DNA of 64,000 bases from an uncultured virus (IMG/VR IMGVR_UViG_3300024999_000098). Its lineage: Duplodnaviria > Heunggongvirae > Uroviricota > Caudoviricetes. The stretch is taken from the IMG/VR virus record IMGVR_UViG_3300024999_000098. One strand, given 5' to 3'. How positions within the stretch are numbered: the stretch's first letter is position 1; the number at the start of each line of letters is the position of its first letter. Of this stretch, positions 3,109 through 62,494 are shown in pieces. The notes under the pieces were generated by a model. The model saw nothing but the letters and a program-made list of their open reading frames with translations, was not told the origin of the DNA and made no database searches. Position numbers and translations under genes: made by a program.

Positions 3109-3150
3109 ATCACCTCCGTTGAATTGAGAGAAAAAATCATCCTCCTGATA

Positions 3151-3222
3151 CTTATACACCACTTGTGAAATAATGCAATATTAGAATTCGATTCTTGCAA
3201 TTTCCGGATTACCGGCTATACT
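3151..3222. promoter_or_regulatory. Divergent promoter pair
   Basis: Minus: TTGCAT-16-TATAAG; plus: TTGCAA-16-TATACT upstream of thyX. Confidence 0.55.
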
Positions 3223-3270
3223 ATGACAAATCAGAGGTGCATAGGGCACCGAAAAACCATTGGAGGATTT

Positions 3271-10942: not shown

Positions 10943-11551
10943 ATGATCATTATTGACTGTGAGCAAGGAACACCAGACTGGTTTTCTTGTCGCCTTGGAC
11001 GGCCGTCCGCAAGCAGGTTCGCTGAGATCTACACTAATACGGGGAAGGCGAGTCAATCTAAAAACAAGTACCTCTATGAACTGGCAGGGGAGCGGATCTC
11101 GGGCCAGATGGACGTAGGGTATAAGAACGGTTATATGAGTCGCGGTAACGAGATGGAGGAGGAAGCCCGCAGCACCTTTGAGTTTATTGAAGGGGTGGAG
11201 GTCAAAAAGGTCGGCTTCTGTTTGGAAGACGGTGAGCGGTGGGGATGTTCTCCTGATGGGCTTATTATCCCTAATGGTGGTGTCGAAATAAAATGCAAAA
11301 ATCTTGCCCTTCATGTCGAGTGCCTTAAGAGTGACAAGATGCCAACCCAGCACACGGCCCAGGTGCAGGGCGGAATGTTTGTCACTGGTGCTGATCACTG
11401 GTTTTTTGTATCATATTTCCCTGGTGTGAAGATGTTCATTAAGCGGGTTGAGCGAGATGAAAAATATATCGTAGGGCTCAGTAGCGCACTGGTGGAGTTC
11501 TGTGAAGAGCTGGACGCTGTGGAGCGTTTTGTTCGTGGGTATGGCCAGTGA
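10943..11551 (+). CDS. YqaJ/lambda-exonuclease family
   Basis: QGTPDWF..R.G..SAS; SPDGL; EIKC; QVQGGM. Confidence 0.9.
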   Translation: MIIIDCEQGTPDWFSCRLGRPSASRFAEIYTNTGKASQSKNKYLYELAGERISGQMDVGYKNGYMSRGNEMEEEARSTFEFIEGVEVKKVGFCLEDGERWGCSPDGLIIPNGGVEIKCKNLALHVECLKSDKMPTQHTAQVQGGMFVTGADHWFFVSYFPGVKMFIKRVERDEKYIVGLSSALVEFCEELDAVERFVRGYGQ

Positions 11552-12081
11552 TCACGCAGGAGCGGCTTAAGGAGGTGCTTGATTACGATCCAGACACTGG
11601 AATTTTTCGGTGGAGGGTTACCGCTAGTAATAGAGCTGTGGCTGGTTCTACTGCTGGATCTCCAGATGATGATGGCTATCTCAAGATCAGGGTCGATGGA
11701 AGACTTTATCTTGCCCACCGTTTAGCTATCCTCTACACAGACGGTTATCTCCCAGAAAACACGGTTGACCATAAAGATAGAATTCCATGGCACAATTGGC
11801 GATTAAACCTGCGCGAGGCTTCACACCAATGTCAGGTTAGGAATTGTGGGATGAGAAAAGACAATAGGTCTGGCGTTAAAGGGGTTTATTGGGACAAAAC
11901 GACAGGCAGGTGGGCTGCTTATGTTAGGGTTGGTGGTGTAATGAGTAATCTCGGTCGTTTCGATAATCTCCTTGAGGCAGCCTATACCCGCTATGCTGCC
12001 GAACAGTGTCTTGGGTTTCAAGATTGCGATAAAAACTCAAGCGCCAAGAAGTATATCAAAGAGCAAGGAGGAAAAATTTGA
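11548..12081 (+). CDS. HNH-AP2-like endonuclease, copy 3
   Basis: Paralog; VDHKDRIPWHNWRLNLR. Confidence 0.85.
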   Translation: MITQERLKEVLDYDPDTGIFRWRVTASNRAVAGSTAGSPDDDGYLKIRVDGRLYLAHRLAILYTDGYLPENTVDHKDRIPWHNWRLNLREASHQCQVRNCGMRKDNRSGVKGVYWDKTTGRWAAYVRVGGVMSNLGRFDNLLEAAYTRYAAEQCLGFQDCDKNSSAKKYIKEQGGKI

Positions 12082-17934: not shown

Positions 17935-18192
17935 ATGATCGAGAGATTGACCGCAAAATGGCATGATGCCCCTGTAAAGGCTGTGCCGGTAACCGATGGA
18001 GAGCTGGTTAGGTATGATGATTATCTTGTCCTCTGGAAAGCCCTTTTCAACATTCATCAGGTCTTGAAATTCGTGACTACGGATCTACAGCTGGAGCCGA
18101 ACGAGAAGGGAATGGTTAAGCGGGCGCTCAAGCGCGGCCAGATAACCTTGGATCTGAGGGAGGGGTCGGATTGTGAAGAACCTGAAGTCTAA
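17935..18192 (+). CDS. Hypothetical protein
   Basis: AAGGAG SD; DGELVRYDDY. Confidence 0.55.
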   Translation: MIERLTAKWHDAPVKAVPVTDGELVRYDDYLVLWKALFNIHQVLKFVTTDLQLEPNEKGMVKRALKRGQITLDLREGSDCEEPEV

Positions 18193-18475
18193 CCTGGGAA
18201 AATTGATGCGTGCGCGGGCAGATCATGATAAACTGCCAACTGATCATCTTCTCCGCACACTGGCTGATCGTTTTGACCTTGACCTATGTCGATATATGGA
18301 CCAGCAAGGAAAATGCACTGCTGGGCAATTTTTAGCCTCCTGGGCGAAAGCGAGAAAGGCTTGGTGTGCATATTCTGGCGAGGTTATAGTGGATGTCATG
18401 GCCAGGGATCTCAGTATGAAGATGTGCGATCTTTTTGTAGTGGAACAGGAGGTGAAGTTTGAAGGTAAAAAATAA
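18173..18475 (+). CDS. Hypothetical protein
   Basis: GGAGG SD, GTG start. Confidence 0.5.
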   Translation: MKNLKSNLGKLMRARADHDKLPTDHLLRTLADRFDLDLCRYMDQQGKCTAGQFLASWAKARKAWCAYSGEVIVDVMARDLSMKMCDLFVVEQEVKFEGKK

Positions 18476-18652
18476 ACCTCCCAAGCCGATGATGGGGGCA
18501 GCGCCTGAACCAGATCGGATTTGTTGTTGGTGGTGCCGCCAGCGCAGCCAGATGGTGGGTAAGGATTTACCAGCGGGCTGGCGCTATATTGAGATGGTGA
18601 ATCCAGATTTTCCTGGAGAGCACGCACGGTATTTTTCCTGCGGAGGTGAGAA

Positions 18653-19030
18653 GTGCGGACAGTAGGAAGTGAGATCAGCGCCTGTAAGCAGGTGATCGAG
18701 TTGTGGACCCTGATCAGGGATCTCGATGTCCTGGGTGCGTACCGTAGATTTGAGCTGAAGACTCACGCCTGCGGTATGCTTGGCATGGAACATTATATTG
18801 CCCGCTGCCCATGCTGCGAATTCGACACAAAGGACTGTGAGAGATGTCCGATGGGCGGGTTCTGGCGCGGTGATGGAATAGCCGATGGCGAGTGCATAGG
18901 TGGTATTTTCGGGGTTTGGCAAAGAGCCAGAGGCCATTATGAGAGGGTGGCTGCTGCTGAGGAATTGGTAGAAGCCGCAAGAGAGGCGCTGGCCTATTGG
19001 CAGGCCATGCGCGAAATGAACCAACAGTAG
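18653..19030 (+). CDS. Cys-rich hypothetical protein
   Basis: CPCCE..DCERCP; GGAGG SD. Confidence 0.55.
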   Translation: MRTVGSEISACKQVIELWTLIRDLDVLGAYRRFELKTHACGMLGMEHYIARCPCCEFDTKDCERCPMGGFWRGDGIADGECIGGIFGVWQRARGHYERVAAAEELVEAAREALAYWQAMREMNQQ

Positions 19031-19175
19031 GAGGGTGTATGACGCGGGACGAATTGCTGGAGATCTTGGAGCAGGTAGCAGATGGTGATCTTGATCCGGA
19101 TGAAGCTGTTGACGAGATCTGTGATGGGTGTGATTGTATTGAGTAGGCTGTAAGCAGGAAGTAGTATAGCAGAAG

Positions 19176-19214
19176 AAAGGCCCGTGCCGGTTCGATCCCA
19201 GCACGGGCCTTTTT
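19176..19214. terminator. Bidirectional terminator with T-loop-like apex
   Basis: AAA-GGCCCGTGCCGG-TTCGATC-CCAGCACGGGCC-TTTTT at convergence of the two arms. Confidence 0.8.
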
Positions 19215-19523
19215 ATTAGAATAGCCAGGCGATGAACCTGGCCAGCCATCTGTGATGGATTTTGATATAGATGAACGGTATGTGGCGCATCATGTGGATG
19301 TGCCTGTGCAGAGTCATTTGGTCCTCCCCTTGGTCATGTCCATGTGGACGGTCTTCTGTACCACCGAGGCTTCACCGGAGCGGTGGAACCAGACGGTGCT
19401 GTACTCAGTGAATTCCCCGAGCTTCATTGTGAAGATGCAATTCCACAAGATCCTCGTTGACCTGTACGGTACAAGCGTTCTTTCAATATAATTCATCTCA
19501 CACCTCATGGAATTGCAGCCAGG

Positions 19524-19820
19524 TTATTTTTTAAAGATGAAAGGGAATCCTCCACCTCCGATCAGCATCCCCAGGACCAGCCCGAGGGATGCCAGCTTCT
19601 CAGTCACCAGATCCAGATCAGCCGGATCTCCCGGTGTCTGGAAATTCGTGTTGGGGGTACGCTGGTAGAATTTCTCCATCCCGACATAGGCCTGGACATG
19701 CGGCAGCAACCGGATCGGCACCAGGCCGTCCGATAGCTCGCTACACAGGTCTTTCAGGTGCTCTGGTTTCATACTCCTCGCCTCAAAGGCTGGCGGTCGC
19801 CTTACCGGTAGATCATTCAT
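19524..19820 (-). CDS. Hypothetical early protein
   Basis: GGAGG SD, MNDLPVRR. Confidence 0.55.
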   Translation of the reverse strand: MNDLPVRRPPAFEARSMKPEHLKDLCSELSDGLVPIRLLPHVQAYVGMEKFYQRTPNTNFQTPGDPADLDLVTEKLASLGLVLGMLIGGGGFPFIFKK

Positions 19821-20067
19821 CGTCGTCCTCCCATCCGTATTCATTCGGGTTAAGAATGCGATCGATCGCCTGCCAGTAGGGAAAGCCCTGCGGGGTTTGC
19901 GACCAGCAGAAGCAGGCAGAGAGGTCCAGGTGAGGGTAAAACCCGATGAGCCTATTTTGTGACCGGGGAATAACCGGCGCTTCGTGCAGGAGCCATACAG
20001 ACGCGTCTGGATCGATCTGTGCGACCCGGTCGATCAGCCGCTGGTAGCCTTCATAATATCTTCTCAT
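19813..20067 (-). CDS. Hypothetical early protein (TPQG-motif paralog A)
   Basis: F.WSQTPQG..YW. Confidence 0.65.
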   Translation of the reverse strand: MRRYYEGYQRLIDRVAQIDPDASVWLLHEAPVIPRSQNRLIGFYPHLDLSACFCWSQTPQGFPYWQAIDRILNPNEYGWEDDDE

Positions 20068-20306
20068 TTTTTCCTCCTATACAGCTTCCGTTCGATTTCA
20101 AGCCAGTATTTGTGGCCCTGTGGGGTTTTGCACCAAACAAACGCTGCACACAAGGGGGCATTCTCACACAGGGCGGTATAGTGGTTGCCGGTGTGTCTGC
20201 GGCTCATGATCGGGGCAACGTGCAGCAGGTAGTTTGCCGCGTCGCAGTCGAATTTAGACACAAGGGTGATCAGGGCCTGGTAGTAAGTCCCGTAGTATCT
20301 TCTCAT
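20064..20306 (-). CDS. Hypothetical early protein (TPQG-motif paralog B)
   Basis: Start MRRYYG after GGAGG; F.WCKTPQG..YW. Confidence 0.65.
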   Translation of the reverse strand: MRRYYGTYYQALITLVSKFDCDAANYLLHVAPIMSRRHTGNHYTALCENAPLCAAFVWCKTPQGHKYWLEIERKLYRRKK

Positions 20307-20474
20307 TTGACCTCCACATAGATGATGGTTACCAGGGAGCCATCCCCCTGATCCTTGGTACATGCCGGGAGCATCTCACACAGGGTGATAGTCTCTCGAC
20401 CGACACAGTTACGACATGATCCTGGCCAGACTGGGGCCTCAGCCCTGAATCGCCTGCCCAGGATCTCGATGATT

Positions 20475-20864
20475 TCATTCGACCACATAATAGTCGCCTC
20501 CATCCTTCGTCCAGCCGTCGTGCAACATGGCCTGGTCGACAGTAACGTGCTTCAGGGTGCCAATGGCCTCCAATTTTTCGCCAGCCAGGAAGAACAGGTT
20601 GGCGGTCCTCTTGTGGTTCTTGGGCCGGTTCAGGATCAGGATCGATTCCTGATTATGCTTCCGGCAGAGAGCGGCGACATCCGCGCTGTAGGAGCCGCCC
20701 CAGAGCGCCACATAGCTGGTTTCCTGCTGGCCCTTGTAGGAGCCCAGGACTTTCTTTACAGGAGCGCCGATCTGCTTCTCTACATACTCCTGTTCCTTCT
20801 TACCGAGCTGCGTGTTGACGGCGAAGATGGCCAGCGCCGACTGGCTTTTCAGGAAGCGTTTCAT
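20475..20864 (-). CDS. Hypothetical early protein
   Basis: GSYKGQQETSY...QESIL; 129 aa ORF. Confidence 0.55.
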   Translation of the reverse strand: MKRFLKSQSALAIFAVNTQLGKKEQEYVEKQIGAPVKKVLGSYKGQQETSYVALWGGSYSADVAALCRKHNQESILILNRPKNHKRTANLFFLAGEKLEAIGTLKHVTVDQAMLHDGWTKDGGDYYVVE

Positions 20865-20866
20865 GA

Positions 20867-21070
20867 TCAGATCCCCATGTTGAATGCTTTACGGTTCTGA
20901 GCAAAGCGGAATGTCACCAGGCCATGCTCCTTCGAATCCTTATTCATTGGTCGCCCATCCCAAGGGCTGGAGTAATCATTGATGATGAAGTCTTTGCCCT
21001 GCTCCCATGCTTCAACAACCTCTTTTCTGCTTTTGTAGTCGCGCCCGTAGGCCGGTGTCAAGGTAATCAT
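20867..21070 (-). CDS. Hypothetical early protein
   Basis: LTPAYGRDYKS..V..AW..GKDF; GGAGG SD. Confidence 0.6.
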   Translation of the reverse strand: MITLTPAYGRDYKSRKEVVEAWEQGKDFIINDYSSPWDGRPMNKDSKEHGLVTFRFAQNRKAFNMGI

Positions 21071-21097
21071 GGTGTCCTCCATATATGGAATTGAATC

Positions 21098-21147
21098 GTT
21101 TGACTGCCCATAACCGAGCCCCGTAAGGCCCGGCTATCGAAGGTCAA
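21098..21147 (-). ncRNA. Structured RNA hairpin motif, copy 1
   Basis: 50 nt, 36/50 identical to 22444..22493 with compensatory changes. Confidence 0.65.
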
Positions 21148-21459
21148 TACTCGTTAATCATATCTCCCCAAGGCCCGCGATAGAGTGCGACCAGGCGATC
21201 CGGGTGATTCTCTCCGAGATCCAAGGCCACATCCATCATGAAGAAGCTGGTTTCAAGACCTATCGAAACACCAGCCTCAGTCCACATTGTCAACATCATA
21301 AGCATCATCATACCGGTCCCTCCCCGAGAATTCTTGTGAGCCTGATGAATTTCTTGTAATTGAGCTTACGAATGGCGCTGGCAATCATCCATTCGTAGAG
21401 CCCATTACCAGATTTACCAGACCGTTCCCATTGCCACACCATCATTGCGAAAGTCATGG

Positions 21460-21639
21460 TTACCTCCTGATCAGATCGCAGCCGATATAGGCCTCTGCTA
21501 CGTGGACATATTCCCGCCCCATGTTCCAGACCAGGCCGGTGTCAACAAGCATCTGGAACAGGGCGGTGATTTCATCTTCGTCCATCATACCATTTTCGTA
21601 GTATGATATCAACGTCGTGAGTTCTTTTTCGATTTCCAT
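21460..21639 (-). CDS. Small hypothetical early protein
   Basis: Hand-translated 59 aa: ..YENG.MDEDEITALFQMLVDTGLVW.. Confidence 0.55.
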   Translation of the reverse strand: MEIEKELTTLISYYENGMMDEDEITALFQMLVDTGLVWNMGREYVHVAEAYIGCDLIRR

Positions 21640-22046
21640 ACCGGTTCCGGCAGCTCCTCAAATACTGCCTCTCCATTAGAAAAGTGACCAATCAGCCGGT
21701 GGGTTCCGAAGACCTTGAGGAAATTCTCTTCGACCCGTTCCATAAACTTGACTGCCATTGGGGTATTGCGACCGCCGACAGGGGTCATCCAGATCGCGAT
21801 CTGTCCGCAGTATTCGCTGATCCCAACCCAGCAGAGCTTATTCTGGGCCAGTGCATGATACTCCCGGCCCAGCCACCGATTCACCTTGATGAACGACGGC
21901 CAGCGGTGCAGGGTTTCGGCCTGGATGAAATCGATCAGGTCGTCAAACCGGTCGCTGATATCATCTTCGGACTCTTCGTCGGCCCAGTCGGACCAGATCT
22001 GAAAGGCTACCAGGCTATCCATTGGATACGCTACGCTTCTTGACAT
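21609..22046 (-). CDS. Hypothetical early protein
   Basis: AGGAGG SD, MSRSVAYP; GHFSNGEAVF. Confidence 0.6.
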   Translation of the reverse strand: MSRSVAYPMDSLVAFQIWSDWADEESEDDISDRFDDLIDFIQAETLHRWPSFIKVNRWLGREYHALAQNKLCWVGISEYCGQIAIWMTPVGGRNTPMAVKFMERVEENFLKVFGTHRLIGHFSNGEAVFEELPEPVWKSKKNSRR

Positions 22047-22050
22047 ATCT

Positions 22051-22260
22051 CTACCTCCTACCATGAGTGAGGTCGTCGTATTCAGCACCGAGCATACCGA
22101 TGATTTTGACGACTTTATAATACTTCCGGCCTGCGTTTACCCCAAAACCTTTTTCCGCATCTTCGCGTGTTGCGTAGATCTTGCCAGTGGTTTTGTGTAG
22201 ATCGCAGTAAGTGTTTCCATCCGCCCTCTTGACCATTAATACATAGAATTCACATGCCAT
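22051..22260 (-). CDS. Hypothetical early protein
   Basis: AGGAGG SD. Confidence 0.55.
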   Translation of the reverse strand: MACEFYVLMVKRADGNTYCDLHKTTGKIYATREDAEKGFGVNAGRKYYKVVKIIGMLGAEYDDLTHGRR

Positions 22261-22269
22261 AATAACCTC

Positions 22270-22428
22270 CTAGAATGAAAAACGTATCTTCAGCGCCCTC
22301 TCAGAAGCGTTCATGATGAAGTGAATAACCTCTTCCAGATCAGCTTCTTTGTCGGCATATCTCTGCCAGTGTTTCTTGACATACAAGATAAAGTCAATCC
22401 TGTTGTATGGTGGTGGCTTGATTTCCAT
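22270..22428 (-). CDS. Hypothetical early protein
   Basis: GGAGG SD, MEIKPPPY. Confidence 0.5.
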   Translation of the reverse strand: MEIKPPPYNRIDFILYVKKHWQRYADKEADLEEVIHFIMNASERALKIRFSF

Positions 22429-22443
22429 ATTGAACCTCCATAG

Positions 22444-22493
22444 GTTTAATTGCCCATGGCAAGGCCCCGTGAGGCCAAGCCATCGAGAGTTAA
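22444..22493 (-). ncRNA. Structured RNA hairpin motif, copy 2
   Basis: See copy 1; lies just upstream of ATGGAGG SD. Confidence 0.65.
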
Positions 22494-22723
22494 CTCCGTG
22501 CTGCCTTTTCCTTGATGCGGCGAAAGGCGATGTTCCAGGTTGAGCCCATGCCATAGAAGGACGGCCCGGACCCGGAGATCTCGGGGTGAGCCCAGCAGGT
22601 AACCTGGACCCCTTCCTTGCTGACCTTGGTATCGTAGTAAACCTGATAGCCAGGGAATTCGATTTCCATGGATACAAACCGTGCGATCTCGATACTGGTC
22701 TTACTTCTAAGATAGGTTCTCAT
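22490..22723 (-). CDS. Hypothetical early protein
   Basis: ATGA-coupled ORF. Confidence 0.5.
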   Translation of the reverse strand: MRTYLRSKTSIEIARFVSMEIEFPGYQVYYDTKVSKEGVQVTCWAHPEISGSGPSFYGMGSTWNIAFRRIKEKAARS

Positions 22724-22887
22724 GATGCCTGCTCCTTTTTGGGTTGAATATTACAGGTCACGTAGCCATGTCTCCGGAGCCGTTCTTCTGCTTCCGGGGT
22801 TTCGGCTATTACGTATGACCAGAAACGCTCGGGCCAACCAGTCCGTCCGTAGCACATCCTCTTCGGTTGATATTCTGTCTTTTCCAT
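22720..22887 (-). CDS. Hypothetical early protein
   Basis: AAGGAG SD, MEKTEY. Confidence 0.5.
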   Translation of the reverse strand: MEKTEYQPKRMCYGRTGWPERFWSYVIAETPEAEERLRRHGYVTCNIQPKKEQAS

Positions 22888-22906
22888 GATGCTCTCCTTA
22901 AGATGA

Positions 22907-23007
22907 ATGGGCGGTCCCAGGTCCGTGTCCCTGAGATCTCCTTCCGGTCCTCCGCGTCTGCAGTCGCTCGGGCCAGTCGGCGCATTACCGATTATGCTGC
23001 CGCCCAT
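22907..23007 (-). ncRNA. Cloverleaf/tRNA-like intergenic RNA
   Basis: 8-bp closing stem ATGGGCGG/CCGCCCAT; D-arm-like GCAT-AATCGGTA-ATGC; TCTCAGG/CCTGGGA arm. Confidence 0.5.
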
Positions 23008-23011
23008 AGTG

Positions 23012-23509
23012 TTATACTGCAATCAGCCTCTCGCCGCAGCGAGTGCATTTGTATTCCTGCTTGCCAGCCACCACCCGGTTGTGCCGGATCGAGGTGAGCT
23101 CGACAGTCCTGCAGGAGCACTTGTAGGTGTGGCGCTTCTTCTCACATACCTGAACCTTGCTGACATCGTAATGATGGGTCCGCTCGGGTGAGAGGCCCGC
23201 GTCCATCATCATGCACTGCCAGCGGTGACCGTGGTTGCTGGTGCCGAAGATACAGGCTTCTACGTGATGCACTGCCTCATGGCCGGGTGTCCTTTTGACG
23301 AATTTCTCGCCTTCCTGAAAGAGAAGGTCGCGGTTCAATTTTATTTCCCTGCCGTTCGCCTGGCCAGCACATTTGCCGCGCTTGTCGAAAGTGATCGCTG
23401 GCCGGGGAATCATCCGGCAGTATTTATTCTCAAAATATCGTGTCACGCGCTCGATTTCCGCGTGACACATACTGATCAGCTGTCCTCTTAACCACTGTTC
23501 GTTATCCAT
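23012..23509 (-). CDS. SprT-like Zn metalloprotease
   Basis: AGQA, HEAVH, HG..W..M, YKCSC, H, YKCTRC. Confidence 0.85.
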   Translation of the reverse strand: MDNEQWLRGQLISMCHAEIERVTRYFENKYCRMIPRPAITFDKRGKCAGQANGREIKLNRDLLFQEGEKFVKRTPGHEAVHHVEACIFGTSNHGHRWQCMMMDAGLSPERTHHYDVSKVQVCEKKRHTYKCSCRTVELTSIRHNRVVAGKQEYKCTRCGERLIAV

Positions 23510-23511
23510 GG

Positions 23512-23886
23512 TTATCTCCTTGGAAATTTTTCCTTTACACTGTGGCTTTCCTTCCACTCCTGTGCCAAGTGATACCACTTGTCGTCACGGTCGCTCACAA
23601 CCTCCGGATGGATCTCATAACAGGTCCGGTAACCGGAATAGGATTTGAGATATTCGAAGGCCTCCTCCGGAGTGCTGAAGTAGTTTTCTGCATACTTCAT
23701 ATCGACCGATCTCCCGAAGGTGAAGTCGCTACCGTAATCCACGAAGGTCATCCGTTTTTCTCCGCATGAGTCAATTGTCCGCTCAACAACCATGCAGAGT
23801 GCGATGTCGTCTTCGCCGGTCTTGTAGATCATTGAGATGTTCCCCGAGGCCCTGTAGACCTTCTGTCCTTTCTTGAATTTCGCCAT
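23512..23886 (-). CDS. Hypothetical early protein
   Basis: GGAGG SD, MAKFKKGQKV. Confidence 0.6.
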   Translation of the reverse strand: MAKFKKGQKVYRASGNISMIYKTGEDDIALCMVVERTIDSCGEKRMTFVDYGSDFTFGRSVDMKYAENYFSTPEEAFEYLKSYSGYRTCYEIHPEVVSDRDDKWYHLAQEWKESHSVKEKFPRR

Positions 23887-23897
23887 GGTGTCCTCCA

Positions 23898-24158
23898 TTA
23901 ACTGAGTTCATCAATTTGCTTCTTCAGATCGACAATGTCCATCTGCTTTAAGTAGATCATCCTCTCAAGCTCCTCGACTTTTTCCGCCCGAGGGAGCATG
24001 TCGTGAATTACCGTCATACCGAAGCGGGTGTAGATGTCGGCTATGTCCTGTTTATACTTCATTGCCGGGTGAAACGTGTAAACCTTCTCGATAACCTTGT
24101 AATCCTCTTCCGAGACGCTGGCTATTTTTGCCCGTGCTGTGAATTCATGCATCATCAT
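23898..24158 (-). CDS. Hypothetical early protein
   Basis: AGGAG SD; 86 aa. Confidence 0.6.
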   Translation of the reverse strand: MMMHEFTARAKIASVSEEDYKVIEKVYTFHPAMKYKQDIADIYTRFGMTVIHDMLPRAEKVEELERMIYLKQMDIVDLKKQIDELS

Positions 24159-24169
24159 AATTTCGCTCC

Positions 24170-24361
24170 TTAGAAGGTGAATCCGAAGTAGACTTCCTTG
24201 TCGGCCTTGATGAAGATCTCCGTGTTGTGGTCGAACCAGCAGGTACAGGAAAAGCTCTTCGTTGCCCTGTCGTAATGGCCCTTGGTAAAGACCATCTGGC
24301 TGTTCTCTTTGCGCTTGATGAATTCGCCCTTCTTCAGGTGCCTGATCGCGATCTTATCCAT
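24170..24361 (-). CDS. Hypothetical early protein
   Basis: LKKGEF..R..V..KGHYDR..K.FSC..F.D. Confidence 0.6.
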   Translation of the reverse strand: MDKIAIRHLKKGEFIKRKENSQMVFTKGHYDRATKSFSCTCWFDHNTEIFIKADKEVYFGFTF

Positions 24362-24372
24362 AATCCCCTCCG

Positions 24373-24474
24373 TTACTTTCTATTCATTTCCCATCTGTCC
24401 CATAACCAGCAACAGAACCATACAACAGCCATCATTGCCAAAGCGATGGCGAATTCAATAAAGAATGTAAACAT
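24373..24474 (-). CDS. Small membrane peptide, first ORF of early transcript
   Basis: Hand-translated 33 aa MFTFFIEFAIALAMMAVVWFCCWLW..; GGAGG SD. Confidence 0.45.
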   Translation of the reverse strand: MFTFFIEFAIALAMMAVVWFCCWLWDRWEMNRK

Positions 24475-24490
24475 GATGCCCTCCAAAAAT

Positions 24491-24579
24491 TGCTACTCCC
24501 GGCAGGATTCGAACCTGCATCCAATGGCCTACTAAGCCAACGGCAGACCCCTTTGAACTGCCTCAAGGTGTCGGGAGCA
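24491..24579 (-). ncRNA. Non-canonical tRNA-like element
   Basis: Acceptor-like TGCTCCCG/CGGGAGTA; perfect T arm GCAGG-TTCGAAT-CCTGC; D and anticodon arms non-canonical; no encoded CCA. Confidence 0.7.
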
Positions 24580-24584
24580 TATCT

Positions 24585-24643
24585 TGTGTTTTCGACCATT
24601 CTCTGTGGTCATCGTCAGCGGTGCGAAGAAGCACCGGAACACA
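24585..24643 (-). ncRNA. Type III hammerhead ribozyme
   Basis: UGUGUUC^CGGUGC-UUCUUC-GCACCG-CUGACGA-U-GACCA-CAGAGAA-UGGUC-GAAA-ACACA: three stems plus CUGANGA/GAAA/UH core. Confidence 0.88.
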
Positions 24644-24751
24644 TATCGCCTGGCGAAGGGGCCTGATTGCCTGCTCCGCCTTAAGGGTTCTCGATTAACC
24701 TCCCCCTGTTGCTTCCGGCCTCTCTCCGGGTCGTCCTCTGCCTTCACCTAT

Positions 24752-24857
24752 ATCGTAATACCAAAACACCAGGGAGTCAAGGGTATTTTGTAATATTTTT
24801 AATATCGAGTGAAATCGGTGGAGTATGGTTGCATAAAAAGAATTGATGCTTTATATT
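24752..24857. promoter_or_regulatory. Divergent promoters (early leftward; rightward toward terminase)
   Basis: Minus: TTGACT-17-TACGAT (24780..24752); plus: TTGCAT-17-TATATT (24829..24857). Confidence 0.65.
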
Positions 24858-24922
24858 AGTAAACATGCGACCAGGAGTCTCCATAATAGTATGGGGCGGG
24901 CCTGGCGATTGGCTCTTTTTGG

Positions 24923-25231
24923 GTGATTATCATGGAGGCGACAAAAAAAGGATTACAAGTTTACCTGGGAGTTCGGCTGCTTAAGCATCTGATCAAAAAC
25001 CACCCGGCTGTCGGAGAAATGGGCATGACGGTGGAGGTCACAGACTGGGATGCATTTTTTTCTGACATAGCTAAAGCCCTGTGGACAGTGACAAAAGACG
25101 CTGACTCTCCCATGCATCGCGCCATCCATGATGCCGTCCTTTTGGCACTTGACAAGTCAAAACACGCCGCAATGGTCGATAATGACAGTGATATCCTCGA
25201 CTTGGTCGATTTTATGGAGCAGAACGCATGA
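24923..25231 (+). CDS. Hypothetical protein
   Basis: First ORF of rightward arm; start uncertain. Confidence 0.5.
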   Translation: MIIMEATKKGLQVYLGVRLLKHLIKNHPAVGEMGMTVEVTDWDAFFSDIAKALWTVTKDADSPMHRAIHDAVLLALDKSKHAAMVDNDSDILDLVDFMEQNA

Positions 25232-25590
25232 CCGGTGTCCTTCATGAGCTGAAGAAGTTATTTGTTAGGAGCCCTGGCTGGAATAAAGTCCGCAGGGCTC
25301 GTATCAAAGGCGACGGAAGTAAATGTCAGGCATGTGGTCGGACCCGCAACCTGCAGGTTCACCATGTCCTCCCCGTTCACCTGTTCCCCTGGTTGGAACT
25401 GGCCATCACCAATCTGATTACATTATGTGGCCCGTGCCACCTGTTCCTTGGCCATCTCAATCATTGGCAAGCCTATAATCCGAACATAAGGGCGCTGGCC
25501 CGGCATATGAGAACCATGATCCTCAATCGCTGGGATAAGCTCCGCACCATGGAATCTGAAGCTGATCAGGAGAAGCAATGGCAAAAGTGA
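25228..25590 (+). CDS. HNH endonuclease (Zn-binding McrA-like type, unrelated to the five AP2 copies)
   Basis: CQACG...VHH..P...NLITLCGPCH; upstream of terminase. Confidence 0.8.
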   Translation: MTGVLHELKKLFVRSPGWNKVRRARIKGDGSKCQACGRTRNLQVHHVLPVHLFPWLELAITNLITLCGPCHLFLGHLNHWQAYNPNIRALARHMRTMILNRWDKLRTMESEADQEKQWQK

Positions 25591-25756
25591 CGATTGTTGT
25601 CGAGGATTGTGAAGGTGATGAACTGGTGAGAGTCCGGATGGAATATGACCCACCGATCCCTGGTGCTGTCGCTGCTGCAGATCTTACGTGCGCTCAATTA
25701 TTGGGACTGCAGTTCATGCAGGACTATGGTATTCAACCTCAAAAAACCACAGTGCA

Positions 25757-25960
25757 ATGATGAACAAGCTCTGCTACCAGTGTGTACATTATGAGCTGAC
25801 GAGATGCCGAAGGCCTGGCGCAGATACCGTCTGCCTTGTCAATGGCTATCACACATATCCACTGTGCGAAGTTGAGCGGGAATTCGGTGCATTCCTCTCA
25901 CGCATTGTAGGAAGATGCGGCCAAGAAGGACGGTATTATGACTTCAAAGGAGATCACTGA
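25757..25960 (+). CDS. Cys-rich hypothetical protein
   Basis: CYQCVHY..C..C..ER..CG.EG.YY. Confidence 0.55.
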   Translation: MMNKLCYQCVHYELTRCRRPGADTVCLVNGYHTYPLCEVEREFGAFLSRIVGRCGQEGRYYDFKGDH

Positions 25961-26160
25961 TGCTCGATATCTATGATGACAGAAAAACTGGTACGCTGGT
26001 ACGCTGGTTGTGCGAAGCAGAGCATACCAATACCGGCGATAAACTCGTTGTGTACTGCTATCAGAACGACCCGGCAGACGTTAAGGCGATGGATGCATCC
26101 GACTTCCACCGGCAGTATCAATTGAGGCTGGATTGTGTTCTGCTGGAGGGAGTAAAATGA
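25960..26160 (+). CDS. DUF1653-like protein
   Basis: AEHTNTGDKLVVY..F pattern. Confidence 0.45.
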   Translation: MLDIYDDRKTGTLVRWLCEAEHTNTGDKLVVYCYQNDPADVKAMDASDFHRQYQLRLDCVLLEGVK

Positions 26161-26558
26161 AAGGCAAAGGTATTCAGGTTACAAATAAGGCCTATCGAGA
26201 TGGATACGAGCGCACGTTCAAGAAGCCCACTCTTTTGGAGAAAATGAGAACTGCAACTGATGAGCTTGAGCGGAATAGCGAGATCCCTTCTCTCTTGGAT
26301 AGCCTGAGAGATGTAAACTCATACACCAAGGAAGAGCTGAACAAGCACTTCCACCTGGCAGACTTCGTTGCCCTGCGTGATGGTGAATGGACTGAAGAGA
26401 AGGTCTACGCTATCACCAACGAAGAGATCACTGATCCAGGTTCATGGGTAAAGGCCAGGTTCATCGAAAAGACTGAGGTCTGTGTAGAGAATATCGATAC
26501 CAAGCCACTGATGGAGAGCTGGGTTCTCGATATCAATCACTTCGAAGGACTCGATTAA
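26157..26558 (+). CDS. Hypothetical protein
   Basis: GGAGG SD; NKAYRDGYERTF. Confidence 0.55.
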   Translation: MKGKGIQVTNKAYRDGYERTFKKPTLLEKMRTATDELERNSEIPSLLDSLRDVNSYTKEELNKHFHLADFVALRDGEWTEEKVYAITNEEITDPGSWVKARFIEKTEVCVENIDTKPLMESWVLDINHFEGLD

Positions 26559-26559
26559 G

Positions 26560-27189
26560 ATGGCAGGCGCAAGACACGACTGGCAATTACTTGAGGAGGA
26601 CTGGAGAAGAAACGAGAAGAGCCTGGCCCAGATGGCAGAGGACTATCTCAGGTTGACAGGTAAGAAGATATCGCGCAATGCGATCCAGAAGCACTTCAGG
26701 GATCAACCTCGCGATCTTGCGAAGAAAATTAAAGCAGCGACTGAACGGAAAGTGGTCGAAGCTAAACGTAAGTTGACAGAGGTCGAGGCCAAGGTGACAA
26801 AGGCCCGTCGTAAGTTGACAGACAAGGATATTGTCGAAGCACGTAGCGACGTAATTGCCCGAATTCGCACGGAACAAGAGGATGATGCAACCGATAACCG
26901 ACGCTTCATTTCCGATGTCCTGGCCGAGGTTAAGAAAGCATATCATGAGCCTGAGAAGCTGGTTGAACTGGTTGGAATGATTAACGAAGAGCATCCTGAC
27001 TACGTGCTGGTGACCAGGCAATTCGAAAAGCTCATTGCACTTGGCGAGATGGTTGACATTCTGAAGAAGCTGATGGAGCTCTGGATCAAGCTGGCCGAGG
27101 CCGAAGCACGGATCTACGGCATTGATAAGGCCGATGGTGACAAGGGAGTCTGGACCGTGCGGTTGACCGAAGACGAGGCTAACCTGTGA
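26560..27189 (+). CDS. Terminase small subunit (putative)
   Basis: DW..LE.DWR N-terminal HTH-like; directly upstream of TerL. Confidence 0.65.
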   Translation: MAGARHDWQLLEEDWRRNEKSLAQMAEDYLRLTGKKISRNAIQKHFRDQPRDLAKKIKAATERKVVEAKRKLTEVEAKVTKARRKLTDKDIVEARSDVIARIRTEQEDDATDNRRFISDVLAEVKKAYHEPEKLVELVGMINEEHPDYVLVTRQFEKLIALGEMVDILKKLMELWIKLAEAEARIYGIDKADGDKGVWTVRLTEDEANL

Positions 27190-28571
27190 TCAAGACCTAC
27201 GACGCACCTTCAGCCGAGAATCCCGACTTCAGGCTCACGCCGAAGCAAGTCGAAGCACAGCACCTGATCGCCACACCGGGCATTTCGGACATCCTTCTCT
27301 ATGGTGGAGCTCGTAGCGCCAAGACGTTTCTGATCTGCCGGACCATCGCCATCCGGGCCATGAAATCGCCCTTCTCCCGGCACGCGATCATGCGCTACCG
27401 GTTCAACCATGTCAAGCAGTCAATCATCCTGGATACATGGCCGAAGATGATGCGGCTGTGCTTCCCCGGTGTCAAGTGTCATATCGATAAGTCCGACTGG
27501 TACGCGCAGTTCCCGAACGGAGCACAGGTATGGTTTGGTGGCCTGGACGAGGGCGAGCGCCTGGAGAAGCTCCTGGGTATGGAGTATGTAACCATATTCC
27601 TGAATGAGTGCAGCCAGATATCACTACAGGCCCGTGAGACGATGATCACCCGGCTTGCCCAGAAGGTCTATCAGGAGGTCGAGGGGAAAGGCCTGCGGTT
27701 GCTGGTGCCGAAGATGTTCTACGACGAGAACCCACCTTCGAAAGGCCATTGGTCTTACAAGATGTTCATTCAGAAGATGAAGGCTGACAAGCGGGAAACA
27801 CTCGCACATCCGGAGCGTTACGCCGTCATGCAGATGAACCCGAAAGACAACCTGGCCAATCTGTCGCCCGACTTCATGGAGAAGCTGGATGCCATGACAG
27901 CCAGGATGCGCCTGCGGTTCAGGGATGGTGTGTTCAGCGAGATCGTAGAGAACCAGCTCTTTGACGATGTGAAGATCGAGACATACAGGGTGGTTAATGA
28001 CATCGATGTACCCGACATGGTCAGGATCGTAGTGGCGGTTGACCCGTCCGGATCTGGCGACGAGGAAAACGCGAAGAACGACGAGATCGGTATTGTCGTG
28101 GCCGGGCTCGGGATCGATGGCCTTGGATATCTCCTGGCGGACTGTACTGTCAAGGCAGGGCCTGCTACATGGGGCAAGGTGGCCACTGATTCGTTCGAAC
28201 GCTTCGAAGCCAATACCATCGTAGCAGAGCAGAACTTCGGTGGCGCTATGGTCGAACGCGTGATCCAGGTCACCAGGCCAAGAACACCATATAAGGCCGT
28301 CACTGCATCCCGAGGTAAACAGGTCAGGGCCGAACCCATCGCCGCACTGGTAGAGCTGGGGAAGATCCGGCACGTAGGCTATTACCCATTGCTGGAGGAC
28401 GAGCTGGTGCAGTTCACCACCAACGGCTACCAAGGCCCGAACAGCCCGAACCGTGCTGATGCCTATGTGTGGGCATTCACAGAGCTTTTCGGTGCAATCG
28501 TGAAGAAGGTCAAGAAGAACCAGGCCGTCATGCCGCCGCGTGTCCCGCTGGATCGAGGCGTGGGGTACTGA
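27186..28571 (+). CDS. terL: Terminase large subunit
   Basis: YGGARSAKT Walker A; NP motif; VAVDPS, AEQNFGG, K..RAEP, PNRADA nuclease motifs. Confidence 0.92.
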   Translation: MIKTYDAPSAENPDFRLTPKQVEAQHLIATPGISDILLYGGARSAKTFLICRTIAIRAMKSPFSRHAIMRYRFNHVKQSIILDTWPKMMRLCFPGVKCHIDKSDWYAQFPNGAQVWFGGLDEGERLEKLLGMEYVTIFLNECSQISLQARETMITRLAQKVYQEVEGKGLRLLVPKMFYDENPPSKGHWSYKMFIQKMKADKRETLAHPERYAVMQMNPKDNLANLSPDFMEKLDAMTARMRLRFRDGVFSEIVENQLFDDVKIETYRVVNDIDVPDMVRIVVAVDPSGSGDEENAKNDEIGIVVAGLGIDGLGYLLADCTVKAGPATWGKVATDSFERFEANTIVAEQNFGGAMVERVIQVTRPRTPYKAVTASRGKQVRAEPIAALVELGKIRHVGYYPLLEDELVQFTTNGYQGPNSPNRADAYVWAFTELFGAIVKKVKKNQAVMPPRVPLDRGVGY

Positions 28572-31780: not shown

Positions 31781-32656
31781 ATGGCAGTAGAAAACGAGCA
31801 GGACAAGGCAGAACGCGAAGAGCGTGAATTGTACGCAGAGGTCAACGCTGAGATCTACGGTCAACAGGAAGTAACGGAAGGTGTAACCGATGAGTTACCC
31901 CCGGTCGTTACGCCCGAGGCCAGCACCGAAGTCATCGATCCATGGGCAGGAACGAGCCCAGCCTTACGGCAAATGATGGAAGGGATCAGTAACAGGATGG
32001 CCGACCTGGATGCAATGAACGACAGGTTGAAGCAGGCAGAGCGCAGGGTTGGAAGTCTCAACAACAAGCTCTCCGCAGCACCCGCAATGCCCAAAGCACC
32101 GACCGCCGAAGAAATCGCACAGGCTGCAGAATCCGATGAGAAACTGCAGGAGTTTTTGCGTGACTTCCCGGTCCATGCAGAAGGCATTCAAGCTCTGATC
32201 AACAAGAAGCTGCAGGCCCAGGGGACTGGGGTTCCGGTGGAAGAGATCGAGCGAATGCGGGCCGAGTTGCAAACCGACTTCGACCAGAAACTTGACACTG
32301 CCCAAAAGGGTTACGAACTGAAGCTGCTTAAGTCCAAGTACAAAAATCATCGTGAGATCGCCCTTTCACCCGAGTTTACCGGCTGGATCGAGACACAGGA
32401 TGAAGAGACAAAGACGAAGGCAGGCGGATGGAACGCCCTGGATGGTATTGAGGTTCTCGACAGGTTTTTTGAGAGCCGTAAAGCGAAGAACGATCTGCCC
32501 GATATCACGGGCGAACGAGAGGCCCGTTTGGATTCTGCTGCTGCCGACACTCGGAACACCAGCCGGAACAAACCGGTACGACAAAAAACAGTGGCTGAGA
32601 TGAATGAAGCAGAGCTTTATGATTACGAAGCCAAGAAGATATGGGGGAAACAATAA
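31781..32656 (+). CDS. Scaffold protein (putative)
   Basis: Acidic, helical, directly before capsid. Confidence 0.6.
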   Translation: MAVENEQDKAEREERELYAEVNAEIYGQQEVTEGVTDELPPVVTPEASTEVIDPWAGTSPALRQMMEGISNRMADLDAMNDRLKQAERRVGSLNNKLSAAPAMPKAPTAEEIAQAAESDEKLQEFLRDFPVHAEGIQALINKKLQAQGTGVPVEEIERMRAELQTDFDQKLDTAQKGYELKLLKSKYKNHREIALSPEFTGWIETQDEETKTKAGGWNALDGIEVLDRFFESRKAKNDLPDITGEREARLDSAAADTRNTSRNKPVRQKTVAEMNEAELYDYEAKKIWGKQ

Positions 32657-33696
32657 TGGCCCAGCAGACATATTCACTGGTTCCGTCTCGGAACCTGATT
32701 CGCGCTGAATTGGAAATGCTTTCTCACGCCGAGCCTGTAATGGTTATCGGCACCTTCGGAAAGCAAATGGAGCAGCCGCTCAATAAAACGGACACCGTCG
32801 TGTTCCGTCGTTTGGACCCCTATGCAATGGGTTCGAATGGTGTTGCAGTTATCAATCCCGCTGATTTCCAGCTGTCGGAAGGTACGACCCCGACCCCCGG
32901 AACGATCAGCTATACCGACGTTTCGGTTACCCTGAAGCATTACGCCGTACTGTTCAAATTGACCAGTAAGTCCGAGCTGATGTACGAAGACGACATCCCC
33001 GGCGATATGAAAATCACCACCGGCCAGACCCTTGGTGAGGTCGCAGAGCTTGTCGCTTATGGCGAGTTTAAAGCTGGAAGTTCGGTTATTTACGCCAACG
33101 GCTCGACCCGCGCTGGCCTGAACACCGCGCTCTCCATCCAGAAACTCCGTATGGCCGCTCGTACCCTGGAGAACAACCTGGGCAAGAAGGTCACCACCTG
33201 GATTCAGCCTGGCTTGAAGTTCGCCACCGCTGGTTTCCCGGCTGGTTATATCGTATTCTGCCACACCGACGTAAGCTCGGACATCCGGGATCTCCCGCAT
33301 TTCCGTGATCGCGTTGACTACGGCACCGCAGTTCGCCCGGTCCATGACCGTGAGTTCGGCGCTTGTGAGGAGTTCAGGTTCGTATCGAGCCCCTTGTTCC
33401 GTCCCTTCTTGGCCGCTGGTTCCGCAACCCTGAATGGTATGGTTGCCGCTGACGACACCAACACCGACGTTTATCCTCTGATGGTAATCGCCGCTGAGTC
33501 CTGGGGTCATGTCAGCCTGAAGGGTCATGGCAAGACTTCGATCAGCCCGACCTACCTGCCGCCCAGCCAGAAGACCCATGCCAACCCGAGTGGTACTTTC
33601 GGTTATGTTGGTGCTGACTTCTGGTACGCGCCGATCAGATTGAACGAGAACTGGTTCGTTCGGATCGAGTGCTGTGTAACGGATCTTGAGGCCTAA
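32656..33696 (+). CDS. Major capsid protein (N4-gp56-like)
   Basis: P.NKT.TV.FRR..LSEG.TP; CHTD..DIR; EFG..EE.RFV.SP; RLNE.W..RIE. Confidence 0.85.
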   Translation: MAQQTYSLVPSRNLIRAELEMLSHAEPVMVIGTFGKQMEQPLNKTDTVVFRRLDPYAMGSNGVAVINPADFQLSEGTTPTPGTISYTDVSVTLKHYAVLFKLTSKSELMYEDDIPGDMKITTGQTLGEVAELVAYGEFKAGSSVIYANGSTRAGLNTALSIQKLRMAARTLENNLGKKVTTWIQPGLKFATAGFPAGYIVFCHTDVSSDIRDLPHFRDRVDYGTAVRPVHDREFGACEEFRFVSSPLFRPFLAAGSATLNGMVAADDTNTDVYPLMVIAAESWGHVSLKGHGKTSISPTYLPPSQKTHANPSGTFGYVGADFWYAPIRLNENWFVRIECCVTDLEA

Positions 33697-61187: not shown

Positions 61188-61949
61188 TCAGATCCGGTGC
61201 GATCCGCTTCTTCCTGAAGCGCGGCGAGACATTCGTCCGCCTGTTTTCTTCAGCCGAAGCCGCGCACCTTGATCCATTCCGGTGACCACGTTACGCCCCA
61301 CAGGCCCTGCCGGACGCGGTGCTTTATGACGAATGCATGAAGGGAGAACTCGTCCGCGAAGTATCGCTTTTTTACCGGCGCAGCTTCTTCCACTTCTTCC
61401 CGGTACAGATCCGATGGTCGCATTTTTCGCTTCGCCACGCAATGACTCCCCGTGCAGCTGTTTGTAGGCATTATACGCCGCGATACTGTCCGCGATGTGT
61501 TCCATTTCCCCAGCTGCTTTGGGGAATGCCTTTGGAGCCCATGCCCCATACCTGTCCCGAACCCAACCCATGATATCCCTCTTGGTCGCCTCTGGATTTC
61601 CAAGCGCATATAACTTGACGTTACGGGGAGAGATCCATTTTATATAGAAACCCTTTACCCCGCAAGCCCCTATAGCAACACCGGTAGCCATCTTCATTGA
61701 GGCTGCGGCCTTGGCCGACTTGGAACCACCCGGCAACTCAGCTATTACCTGGGTAATCTCTGGATAGTCATCGAAAACCGCCCTAAAACCACAGGCGATC
61801 ACGAAGGCATCAAAAGCGGCCTGCTCGGAAATCTGACCAATAACGGCCTTAACAGGCTTTGTTCTCCAGACCCCAAAATCCAAGAGCATTCCATCCCGGA
61901 ATATCGACCACCCCGTATTCCTTATACCGAGATCTAAAGACAACTCCAT
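61188..61949 (-). CDS. RuvC-like Holliday junction resolvase
   Basis: LDLGIRNTGW; IAELP; P..VK....G...ATK; HIADSI. Confidence 0.75.
   Translation of the reverse strand: MELSLDLGIRNTGWSIFRDGMLLDFGVWRTKPVKAVIGQISEQAAFDAFVIACGFRAVFDDYPEITQVIAELPGGSKSAKAAASMKMATGVAIGACGVKGFYIKWISPRNVKLYALGNPEATKRDIMGWVRDRYGAWAPKAFPKAAGEMEHIADSIAAYNAYKQLHGESLRGEAKNATIGSVPGRSGRSCAGKKAILRGRVLPSCIRHKAPRPAGPVGRNVVTGMDQGARLRLKKTGGRMSRRASGRSGSHRI
61250..61438 (-). CDS. Small hypothetical protein nested in RuvC ORF tail
   Basis: GGGGAG SD + GTG; MAKRKMRPSDLYREE.. Confidence 0.45.
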   Translation of the reverse strand: MAKRKMRPSDLYREEVEEAAPVKKRYFADEFSLHAFVIKHRVRQGLWGVTWSPEWIKVRGFG

Positions 61950-62494
61950 TTCCACCCTCCCCTGGAGTCAATATACTGCTTTGCGCTGGAGTGGATATCG
62001 CACTCTGGGAACCCCAGGCACTGCTCTGCTGCAAACCTGGCGAAAGCGGCATCAAGGATTGAAGTGTAAAGACCCAGGTTCCGCATCTTACCATTCACAC
62101 AGATTCTTGCTATCCATTTTCTTGTCAGTTTATGCCAGTAAATCCCCTTTACCCCAGACGTGTTATCGCTCCTCATTTTGCAATTTCTCTGCTGACACTG
62201 ATATGAGGCTTCGCGTAAATTCAACCTCCAGTTATGCCAAGGCACCCTGTCGATGTGGTCTACGGTGTTCTCGGGAAGATAGCCGTCTGTATAGAGAATT
62301 GCAAGGCGGTGGGCAAAATAGCGCCTACCGTCGATCCCGATCTGGATATAGCCATCCCCGTCACGGGTGCCAGCCCTTGAACCCTCCAAAGCCCTATTGG
62401 CCAAAGACTCGATCCATGTAAAAAAACCAGTATCAGGGTTGTAGTCCAGCACCTCCTTAAGTCTCTCCTGCGTCAGGCTACAGTGTTGTTCCAT
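61934..62494 (-). CDS. HNH-AP2-like endonuclease, copy 5
   Basis: Paralog; LTQERLKEVLDYNP; VDHIDRVPWHNWRLNLR. Confidence 0.85.
   Translation of the reverse strand: MEQHCSLTQERLKEVLDYNPDTGFFTWIESLANRALEGSRAGTRDGDGYIQIGIDGRRYFAHRLAILYTDGYLPENTVDHIDRVPWHNWRLNLREASYQCQQRNCKMRSDNTSGVKGIYWHKLTRKWIARICVNGKMRNLGLYTSILDAAFARFAAEQCLGFPECDIHSSAKQYIDSRGGWKWSCL

Follow-up and report, generated by a model that had tools for sequence, protein, structure and literature searches.

Hammerhead ribozymes have been described in the polycistronic RNAs of prophages, where they flank genes or short gene blocks and were proposed to cut transcripts to gene length, and in the haloviruses HF1 and HF2, where a hammerhead lies 13 nucleotides (nt) upstream of the first early open reading frame (ORF) and the mapped 5′ end of the RNA coincides with the cleavage site (PMC3088659). 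Here, we analyse a 64,000-nt stretch of DNA from an uncultured virus of the Caudoviricetes (IMG/VR record IMGVR_UViG_3300024999_000098), hereafter the window, in which a predicted type III hammerhead ends a conserved leader RNA in a leftward early operon and is followed by a tRNA-like element, a four-way junction and two hairpins. The first-pass annotation of this DNA had presented the combination of a hammerhead with a tRNA mimic as one that might not have been described. Hammerhead processing of phage polycistronic RNA is already published (PMC3088659), and the window ribozyme adds a new member to this kind. By contrast, a hammerhead next to a tRNA-type structure in a phage was not found in the literature, the supplementary alignments of PMC3088659 not being covered.

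The locus resembles the HHphage of HF1 and HF2 in that the hammerhead is located in the 5′ leader of an early polycistronic transcript, upstream of the first gene. It differs from them in several respects. HF1 and HF2 are haloarchaeal viruses with an HHmeta-type core, whereas here a bacterial host is likely, because the operon has a sigma-70 promoter and Shine-Dalgarno (SD) sequences, and the core is either canonical or U3/A8; moreover, the predicted cut would take off a conserved leader of ~108 nt, and a degenerate tRNA lies between the ribozyme and the SD (PMC3088659). With the prophage hammerheads it shares U3/A8 covariation and loop-loop pairing, but only one hammerhead was found per operon and the other cassette boundaries carry non-ribozyme structures (PMC3088659). 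A further comparison is provided by the theta ribozymes, which are of the hepatitis delta virus (HDV) type, lie downstream of phage tRNAs and were proposed to process 3′ trailers, the tRNAs being functional and often suppressors (PMC10879173). Common to both is the physical linkage between a phage tRNA-type structure and a small self-cleaving ribozyme, but the hammerhead described here stands upstream of a degenerate tRNA, in an mRNA leader; the theta-ribozyme paper makes no mention of hammerheads (PMC10879173).

At the gathering score, Rfam assigned no family anywhere in the window, and ARAGORN at default settings predicted no tRNA; the elements were therefore tested by other means. The ribozyme is located as follows:

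24585..24643, minus strand: type III hammerhead ribozyme, recognised by descriptor, by fold and by a model built from relatives; predicted cut at C24637/C24636.

Read from 5′ to 3′, the element comprises GUGUU, C17, stem I, CUGACGA, an extra U, stem II, GAAA and ACAC(A), the core motifs CUGACGA and GAA lying at 24618-24612 and 24593-24591. Stem I (CGGUGC-UUCUUC-GCACCG) and stem II (GACCA-CAGAGAA-UGGUC) are capped and stem III (GUGUU/AACAC) is open, the three helices measuring 6, 5 and 6 base pairs (bp). The cleavage triplet, which in hammerheads is NUH (H not G), is UUC with C17 at 24637; the relatives have GUC. Folded in isolation, the 63 nt have precisely the three-stem hammerhead structure as their minimum-energy prediction. 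Pairing of loop 1 (UUCUU) with loop 2 (GAGAA) is possible by eye, and pairing between these loops was described for all three hammerhead types (PMC3088659). The extra U (24611) falls between A9 and G10.1, where natural hammerheads can carry an additional nucleotide; in the hammerhead of CChMVd (chrysanthemum chlorotic mottle viroid), a U inserted after A9 raised cleavage 3-4-fold (PMC3705267, PMC4209133).

As a control for chance, a strict descriptor (types I and III, stems of at least 4 bp), run on both strands of the window and of 71 terL-related loci, matched twice in 952,148 bases, at the window site and at the homologous site of locus L006, and had no match in any of five shuffles. A relaxed scan for types I, II and III gave 5 matches in 129,418 bases of the window and its close relatives, all of them at the leader end, and a single match in total over ten shuffles. 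Among the 71 terL loci, the relaxed scan found L006 alone, and relatives at 33-60% terL identity have no hammerhead within 10 kb.

The relatives were gathered by several searches. A metagenome scan with a degenerate pattern of the hairpins described below gave 31 loci, 13 of which are relatives by blastn; the other 18, with neither similarity to the window nor a complementary 5′ arm, were dropped as chance matches. Others were reached via terL (the 71 terL-related loci), and one, L187, by a scan with a leader pattern. In every relative covering the region, homology to the window breaks at 24651/24652, which is the leader end, and resumes at 23015. Six contigs, which by their flanks and first gene make up three lineages, share an identical 54-nt hammerhead at the leader junction, with the core UUGAUAA (U3/A8), a natural covariation that is active in vitro (PMC3088659). 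A third variant, in L187, has the core CUGAUGA; its stem II is unchanged, but stems I and III are different. Rfam Hammerhead_3 gives it 43.1 bits (E = 8e-7), short of the RF00008 gathering score of 48.5.

Variants 2 and 3 align without gaps and are 98% paired, against at most 44% in slid controls, and four pairs are changed on both sides, core pair 3-8 included. A covariance model built from these two variants only, run over the whole window with filters off, ranks the window hammerhead first (18.7 bits, E ~0.01, full model matched), the next match in the window reaching 10.2 bits. The window hammerhead differs from both variants in all three stems. With a complete motif, chance controls, variants at the same site and the top match of the relatives' model, the hammerhead already proposed in the first-pass annotation is confirmed as a prediction, and the view that it is genuine and under selection at the leader end is well supported by comparison of the sequences.

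In distant relatives, another structure takes this place. L045 (terL 64% identical) and L186 have the promoter position and the first leader hairpin, CCCGGAGRGAGGCCGGAAG, in common with the window and are without a hammerhead. Just before the first gene (L045 ~5200-5060, minus strand; L186 ~3118-3270, plus strand), they carry a duplex of 7 + 18 bp (~25 bp) that encloses 85-100 nt at the leader end, where the window has its hammerhead. The differences between the two duplexes are compensated (A-U to G-C, G-C to G-U), and the duplex may be an alternative route to the same cut, via RNase III. In every case, the leader-to-coding junction carries an element of cleavage type, either one of three hammerhead variants or, in these two distant relatives, a duplex of ~25 bp. 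Since the position of the ribozyme is kept while its sequence is replaced, and a duplex is found there in distant relatives, we argue that cleavage itself would be the trait under selection.

The other features of the operon are, in order of transcription:

24752..24780, minus strand: sigma-70-type early promoter, from a consensus scan and hexamer conservation.
24644..24746, minus strand: purine-rich conserved leader RNA; three hairpins are predicted in it, and the GGAG motif occurs three times.
24494..24578, minus strand: tRNA-like element, a degenerate tRNA, with a tRNA-Arg-type acceptor stem, T arm and discriminator A and a non-canonical D region.
23012..24474, minus strand: five-gene cassette found only in the window, ORFs with SD sequences and a SprT-like Pfam match.
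22907..23007, minus strand: conserved four-way-junction RNA, its closing stem having exactly these ends, starting 4 nt past the stop codon of the SprT-like gene.
22446..22493, minus strand: hairpin 1, outer stem UUAAC/UUAA, holding the stop codon of the upstream gene.
21100..21147, minus strand: hairpin 2, of the same paralogous family, outer stem UUGAC/GUCAA, holding the stop codon of the upstream gene.

All seven elements listed by the first-pass annotation lie on the minus strand where it had placed them. The leftward operon is made of small ORFs, mostly without known function, preceded by strong GGAG-type SD sequences. These ORFs overlap or sit 2-11 nt apart, with the exception of three gaps of 124, 61 and 73 nt. 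The three gaps, which are all the gaps of at least 60 nt inside the operon, coincide exactly with the four-way junction and the two hairpins, so that the elements do fill the main intergenic gaps, as had been proposed. The leader, the hammerhead, the junction and both hairpins are present in every related lineage with contig coverage, as isolated islands of homology between swapped genes. The expectation that the elements co-occur in relatives thus held for these five and failed for the tRNA-like element, which is found only in the window, as are the five genes behind it. Besides a 33-amino-acid (aa) membrane peptide and a 165-aa SprT-like protein, this cassette contains ORFs of 63, 86 and 124 aa, and close relatives have no homology to the window between 24651 and 23015. 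The first gene past the hammerhead of L187 (3137-3510, plus strand) is homologous to the 124-aa gene of the window (23886-23512, minus strand), the fourth in the cassette; therefore, the same gene lies directly behind the hammerhead in L187 and three genes further in the window.

The promoter consists of TTGACT (24780-24775), a 17-nt spacer and TACGAT (24757-24752). Its score of 9/12 on the consensus scan is ordinary taken alone; relatives retain both hexamers (TACGAT or TACATT) and have the spacer replaced. The leader runs over ~108 nt from ~24746, a start estimated from the -10 element, to C24637, and its 80-nt core is almost invariant across four lineages, compared with an identity of only 72-90% for the neighbouring genes. 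L045, L186 and L187 share its 5′ hairpin, CCGG-AGRGAGG-CCGG, and L187 keeps hairpins 1 and 2 of the leader, the second with one compensatory pair (GGG/CCC to GGC/GCC, by reading). A 71-aa GTG frame across the leader (24747-24532) was rejected as coding because indels break it in relatives. Pairing of CCGGAA in the leader with UUCCGG in the window hammerhead was likewise rejected as a regulatory switch, because it is not conserved in the other hammerhead variants. A scan of viral contigs with a leader 18-mer returned an unrelated chance locus, L072, and otherwise only the contig of L006; the leader pattern applied to genome contigs gave 29 loci, nearly all of them chance matches in GC-rich coding DNA. 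Two contigs of Acidobacteria metagenome-assembled genomes (L203 and L207, ~position 3001) carry the same 5′ leader hairpin, CCCGGAGUGAGGCCGGAAG, in a context resembling a 5′ untranslated region, with a promoter-like TTGAC element before it and a small Cys-rich ORF after it. This is a possible hint at the phylum Acidobacteria for the host.

tRNA folds can direct cuts by RNase P and RNase Z, as in mitochondrial tRNA punctuation and in RNase P-processed tRNA-like elements such as mascRNA. Here too, a tRNA-shaped fold stands in a longer transcript, in one copy that is not conserved in close relatives. Its acceptor stem, GCUCCCG (from 24578)/CGGGAGU, has 7 pairs, the T arm is GCAGG-UUCGAAU-CCUGC, the discriminator is A24494 and the minimum-energy fold is a four-arm cloverleaf. 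By reading, it can be drawn with four arms and a 5-nt variable loop, with 9 nt instead of 2 before a 5-bp D-like stem. The anticodon-like loop, UUAGUAG, sits on a 4-bp stem with a U-U mismatch. ARAGORN calls it solely when the threshold is set to 80%, and then as a poor tRNA-Thr(AGU) whose acceptor is poor too; default settings give no call. With the Rfam tRNA model, the element scores 20.5 bits, where the cut-off is 29, and the anticodon arm is left out of the alignment.

One 23-mer, which takes in the T arm and the 3′ strand of the acceptor, recurs without change in 23 viral loci, of which 21 have an ARAGORN tRNA call; the matched gene is a tRNA-Arg in eleven cases, and several of these (in L173, L175, L179, L181 and L184) also start with GCTCCCG. 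The first-pass annotation had read the element as a tRNA mimic. Identity with phage tRNA-Arg sequence, rejection by the detectors and occurrence in the window only point instead to a decayed tRNA rather than a designed mimic. Its acceptor stem and T arm, the part recognised by RNase P and RNase Z, are intact, and it is therefore a plausible substrate of RNase P or RNase Z. In two IMG/VR loci (L168 and L171, ~position 1501), the 23-mer stands in sequence without an ARAGORN tRNA call, and these may also be degenerate tRNA-like elements.

The four-way junction, a second cloverleaf, is represented by five distinct sequences with few differing positions and 30 predicted pairs, and its fold has a z-score of -2.49. 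It forms a 131-nt island of 93-94% identity between unrelated genes and begins 2-4 nt past the upstream stop codon across the five sequences. Its first arm, GCAU-AAUCGGUA-AUGC, is D-arm-like by eye; tRNA models and ARAGORN gave no match on the junction, and a search of 785,122 bases with its covariance model recovered the 5 training members and nothing else. A match resembling JUMPstart/ops at 22993-23019 of the window (minus strand), GGGCGGCAGCAU, scored 12.5 bits (E = 3.7) and was treated as chance. The motif AUGGGCRG, similar to this match, recurs in the 3′ internal loop of every hairpin.

In the early region of T7, RNase III processing signals are intercistronic hairpins of ~20 bp with an internal loop. 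The window hairpins resemble them as a paralogous family within one early operon, located at the 3′ end of the upstream cistron, and differ in that their lower stem has only 5 + 2 bp. The family comprises 11 distinct copies of two paralogous types with one architecture, in which an outer stem of 5 bp (UURAC/GUYAA) leads through a conserved internal loop to an inner stem of 12 bp, closed by a 4-nt loop. With 19 pairs (5 + 2 + 12), each forms a two-turn intercistronic duplex of the T7 type in shape, and the internal-loop sequences UCRAU / RUGGGCRG are invariant while the stems vary. Pairing is kept in 93.8% of cells, against at most 55% in slid controls, and three pairs show compensatory change, which agrees with the covariation ascribed to these hairpins beforehand. 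Scored with the family model, the sense strand reaches 70.8-78.2 bits and the antisense strand 16.7-31.9 bits, a difference due to G-U pairs. Over 39 terL loci, the model gave a single match, a divergent copy in L045 (31.3 bits), and it had none in L186 or L187.

The outer stem holds the in-frame stop codon of an upstream ORF of at least 72 open codons in 11/11 copies, whereas anything between 6 and 153 nt separates the hairpin from the next SD-like start. The earlier description of the hairpins as lying directly upstream of an SD is thus to be replaced: it is the position of the stop codon that is conserved, and the hairpins therefore belong to the 3′ end of the upstream cistron. They do not look like intrinsic terminators: a scan of 18000-26500 gave eight terminator-like sites, with none on the minus strand, and the hairpin tails, AAUUAAACCUAUGG and AGUCAAACGAUUC, have no U-run. 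In L006 (lineage B; 5480-5400, minus strand), ~170 nt of extra sequence follow hairpin 2 and contain two T-loop-like motifs (GCAG-UUCGAUU-CUGC and GGGG-UGCGAAU-CCUC) that Rfam does not recognise at E <= 10.

Taken together, we lean, if only slightly, towards an explanation in which the studied region is an early operon of a podovirus-like phage, transcribed by the host polymerase, whose RNA is punctuated by structured elements that act in its processing. The hammerhead would cut after C24637 and free the conserved leader as a small RNA of ~108 nt with a 2′,3′-cyclic phosphate end, and the coding RNA would keep a 5′-OH end capped by the folded ribozyme. Such a cut would uncouple the exchangeable gene cassettes from the leader in the manner of an insulator. 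In synthetic insulators of the RiboJ type, a hammerhead removes the promoter-proximal leader and makes downstream expression independent of it; the window hammerhead differs in being natural, in standing upstream of exchangeable cassettes and in removing a leader that is highly conserved. In the window only, a decayed tRNA stands behind the ribozyme, where RNase P or RNase Z could then cut. The junction and hairpins, which lie at cassette boundaries and are attached to the upstream cistron at its 3′ end, are most likely processing sites or 3′-end stabilisers of the T7 RNase III type; the part proposed for host nucleases is plausible. A more ambitious version, which we regard as tentative and rather unlikely as a whole, is a modular punctuation code. 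Cleavage at the leader-to-mRNA junction would be the selected trait, supplied by interchangeable devices: three hammerhead variants, a duplex of ~25 bp directed to RNase III, or an RNase P signal in the shape of a tRNA. The released leader, rich in GGAG, would have a function of its own as a small RNA and might, for instance, act as a decoy that draws off ribosomes or a nuclease directed at GGAG. The hairpins, with their embedded stop codons, and the four-way junction would mark the points at which the mRNA of each swapped cassette is cut and stabilised.

Other explanations have to be weighed against processing of the operon RNA at these elements. The hammerhead alone might act on RNA, the junction and hairpins being DNA homology patches for cassette recombination with incidental folds. 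Islands of 50-131 nt with 90-94% identity and non-homologous flanks in lineage C and in L154 are what such patches would look like, and the junction shows no compensatory change. Nevertheless, the arms of the hairpins differ between paralogues and in L045 with pairing kept, the family model favours the sense strand through G-U pairs and the stop codon holds a fixed place in all copies, which makes this reading unlikely. Alternatively, the elements could steer transcription elongation, the hairpins as attenuators without a U-tract and the leader as a cis-acting antiterminator RNA of the HK022 put kind. In its favour, no other stretch is as conserved as the leader, which follows the early promoter directly and contains 2-3 conserved hairpins, and the hairpins of the paralogous family are GC-rich and placed at gene ends. 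However, no terminator-like site was found on the minus strand in 18000-26500, no U-run follows the hairpins, no Rfam family was matched and the hammerhead would sever the leader from the elongating transcript, so that we judge elongation control decidedly unlikely.

It is also conceivable that a phage or host RNA-binding protein, such as a translational repressor, uses the hairpins and junction as operators, in which case they would not be nuclease sites. An invariant internal loop between variable stems would suit a protein-binding site, but SD distances from 6 to 153 nt are awkward for occlusion of a ribosome site and PHROGs and Pfam point to no candidate binding protein among the ORFs; we hold this to be quite improbable. 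Finally, the tRNA-like element might be a working, unusual phage tRNA (with an AGU anticodon or of Arg type) whose 5′ leader the hammerhead merely trims. Its drawable four arms and 5-nt variable loop and the relaxed tRNA-Thr(AGU) call speak for this, as do type I hammerheads elsewhere that are predicted to cut at +1 of tRNA-Tyr (see below). Against it stand the silence of default ARAGORN, the Rfam score below cut-off, the absence of U8, a linker of 9 nt where 2 would separate the acceptor from the D stem, and the reliance of the relaxed call on a mismatched acceptor. Moreover, the type III cut would leave a leader of ~58 nt attached, and a working tRNA is thus very improbable.

Several observations weigh against the explanation that we prefer, in which the elements act in processing of the early RNA. 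All cleavages are predictions. Rfam finds no hammerhead in the window at the gathering score, nor at E <= 10 on 331 nt, and it has no hammerhead match on the U3/A8 variant even at E <= 10. The window hammerhead itself has the extra U in its core and a predicted cut site of UUC rather than GUC. The tRNA-like element, present in the window only, could be a decaying tRNA gene without a role, and a possible independent tRNA-shaped fold at the same relative place in L045 comes from a minimum-energy prediction and is unseen by Rfam. The five junction sequences hold no compensatory change, and that of L139 breaks two pairs. Covariation in the hairpins is mostly between the two paralogues, which amounts to few independent events, and the likeness to T7 is one of shape.

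Outside the operon, PHROGs and Pfam identify the small and large terminase subunits (26560-28571) and a major head protein (32641-33696), together with an SU10-type adaptor and large internal virion proteins; a primase, a helicase and ThyX are also encoded. The same two databases gave no RNA-repair or nuclease function among the early ORFs near the operon, and blastn of 20800-25300 against 50,697 phage records returned no match. Four HNH endonuclease genes are spread over the 64 kb (1503-2036, 11548-12081, 25228-25590 and 61934-62539), two of them with AP2-like domains. In addition, 480 nt at 19341-19820 are 93% identical to lineage B, where the neighbouring sequence is 77-82% identical, and the ORFs there have no family match.

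A separate arrangement was observed in other IMG/VR loci. Eight type I hammerheads were found among 56 pattern-matched loci, and 6/8 have a predicted cut exactly at +1 of an ARAGORN tRNA-Tyr(GUA): L080 (396-449), L081 (546-596), L083 (396-449), L086 (524-471), L101 (526-473) and L127 (524-471). In these units, the 3′ strand of stem I is formed by the first 5 nt of the tRNA. Rfam Hammerhead_1 gives L080, L081 and L101 20.8-24.7 bits, below its gathering score of 34, and we found no description in the literature of a type I hammerhead cutting at +1 of tRNA-Tyr. If true, this arrangement would mean tRNA 5′ maturation without RNase P.

The locus links hammerheads with tRNA-type structures in phages. 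It also offers a natural case of a conserved ribozyme position with replaced sequence, including a swap of the core pair from C3-G8 to U3-A8 between homologues, and a leader RNA that is more conserved than the genes behind it. Possible uses of such elements are as natural insulator and processing parts and, in phage genomes, as cassette-boundary markers.

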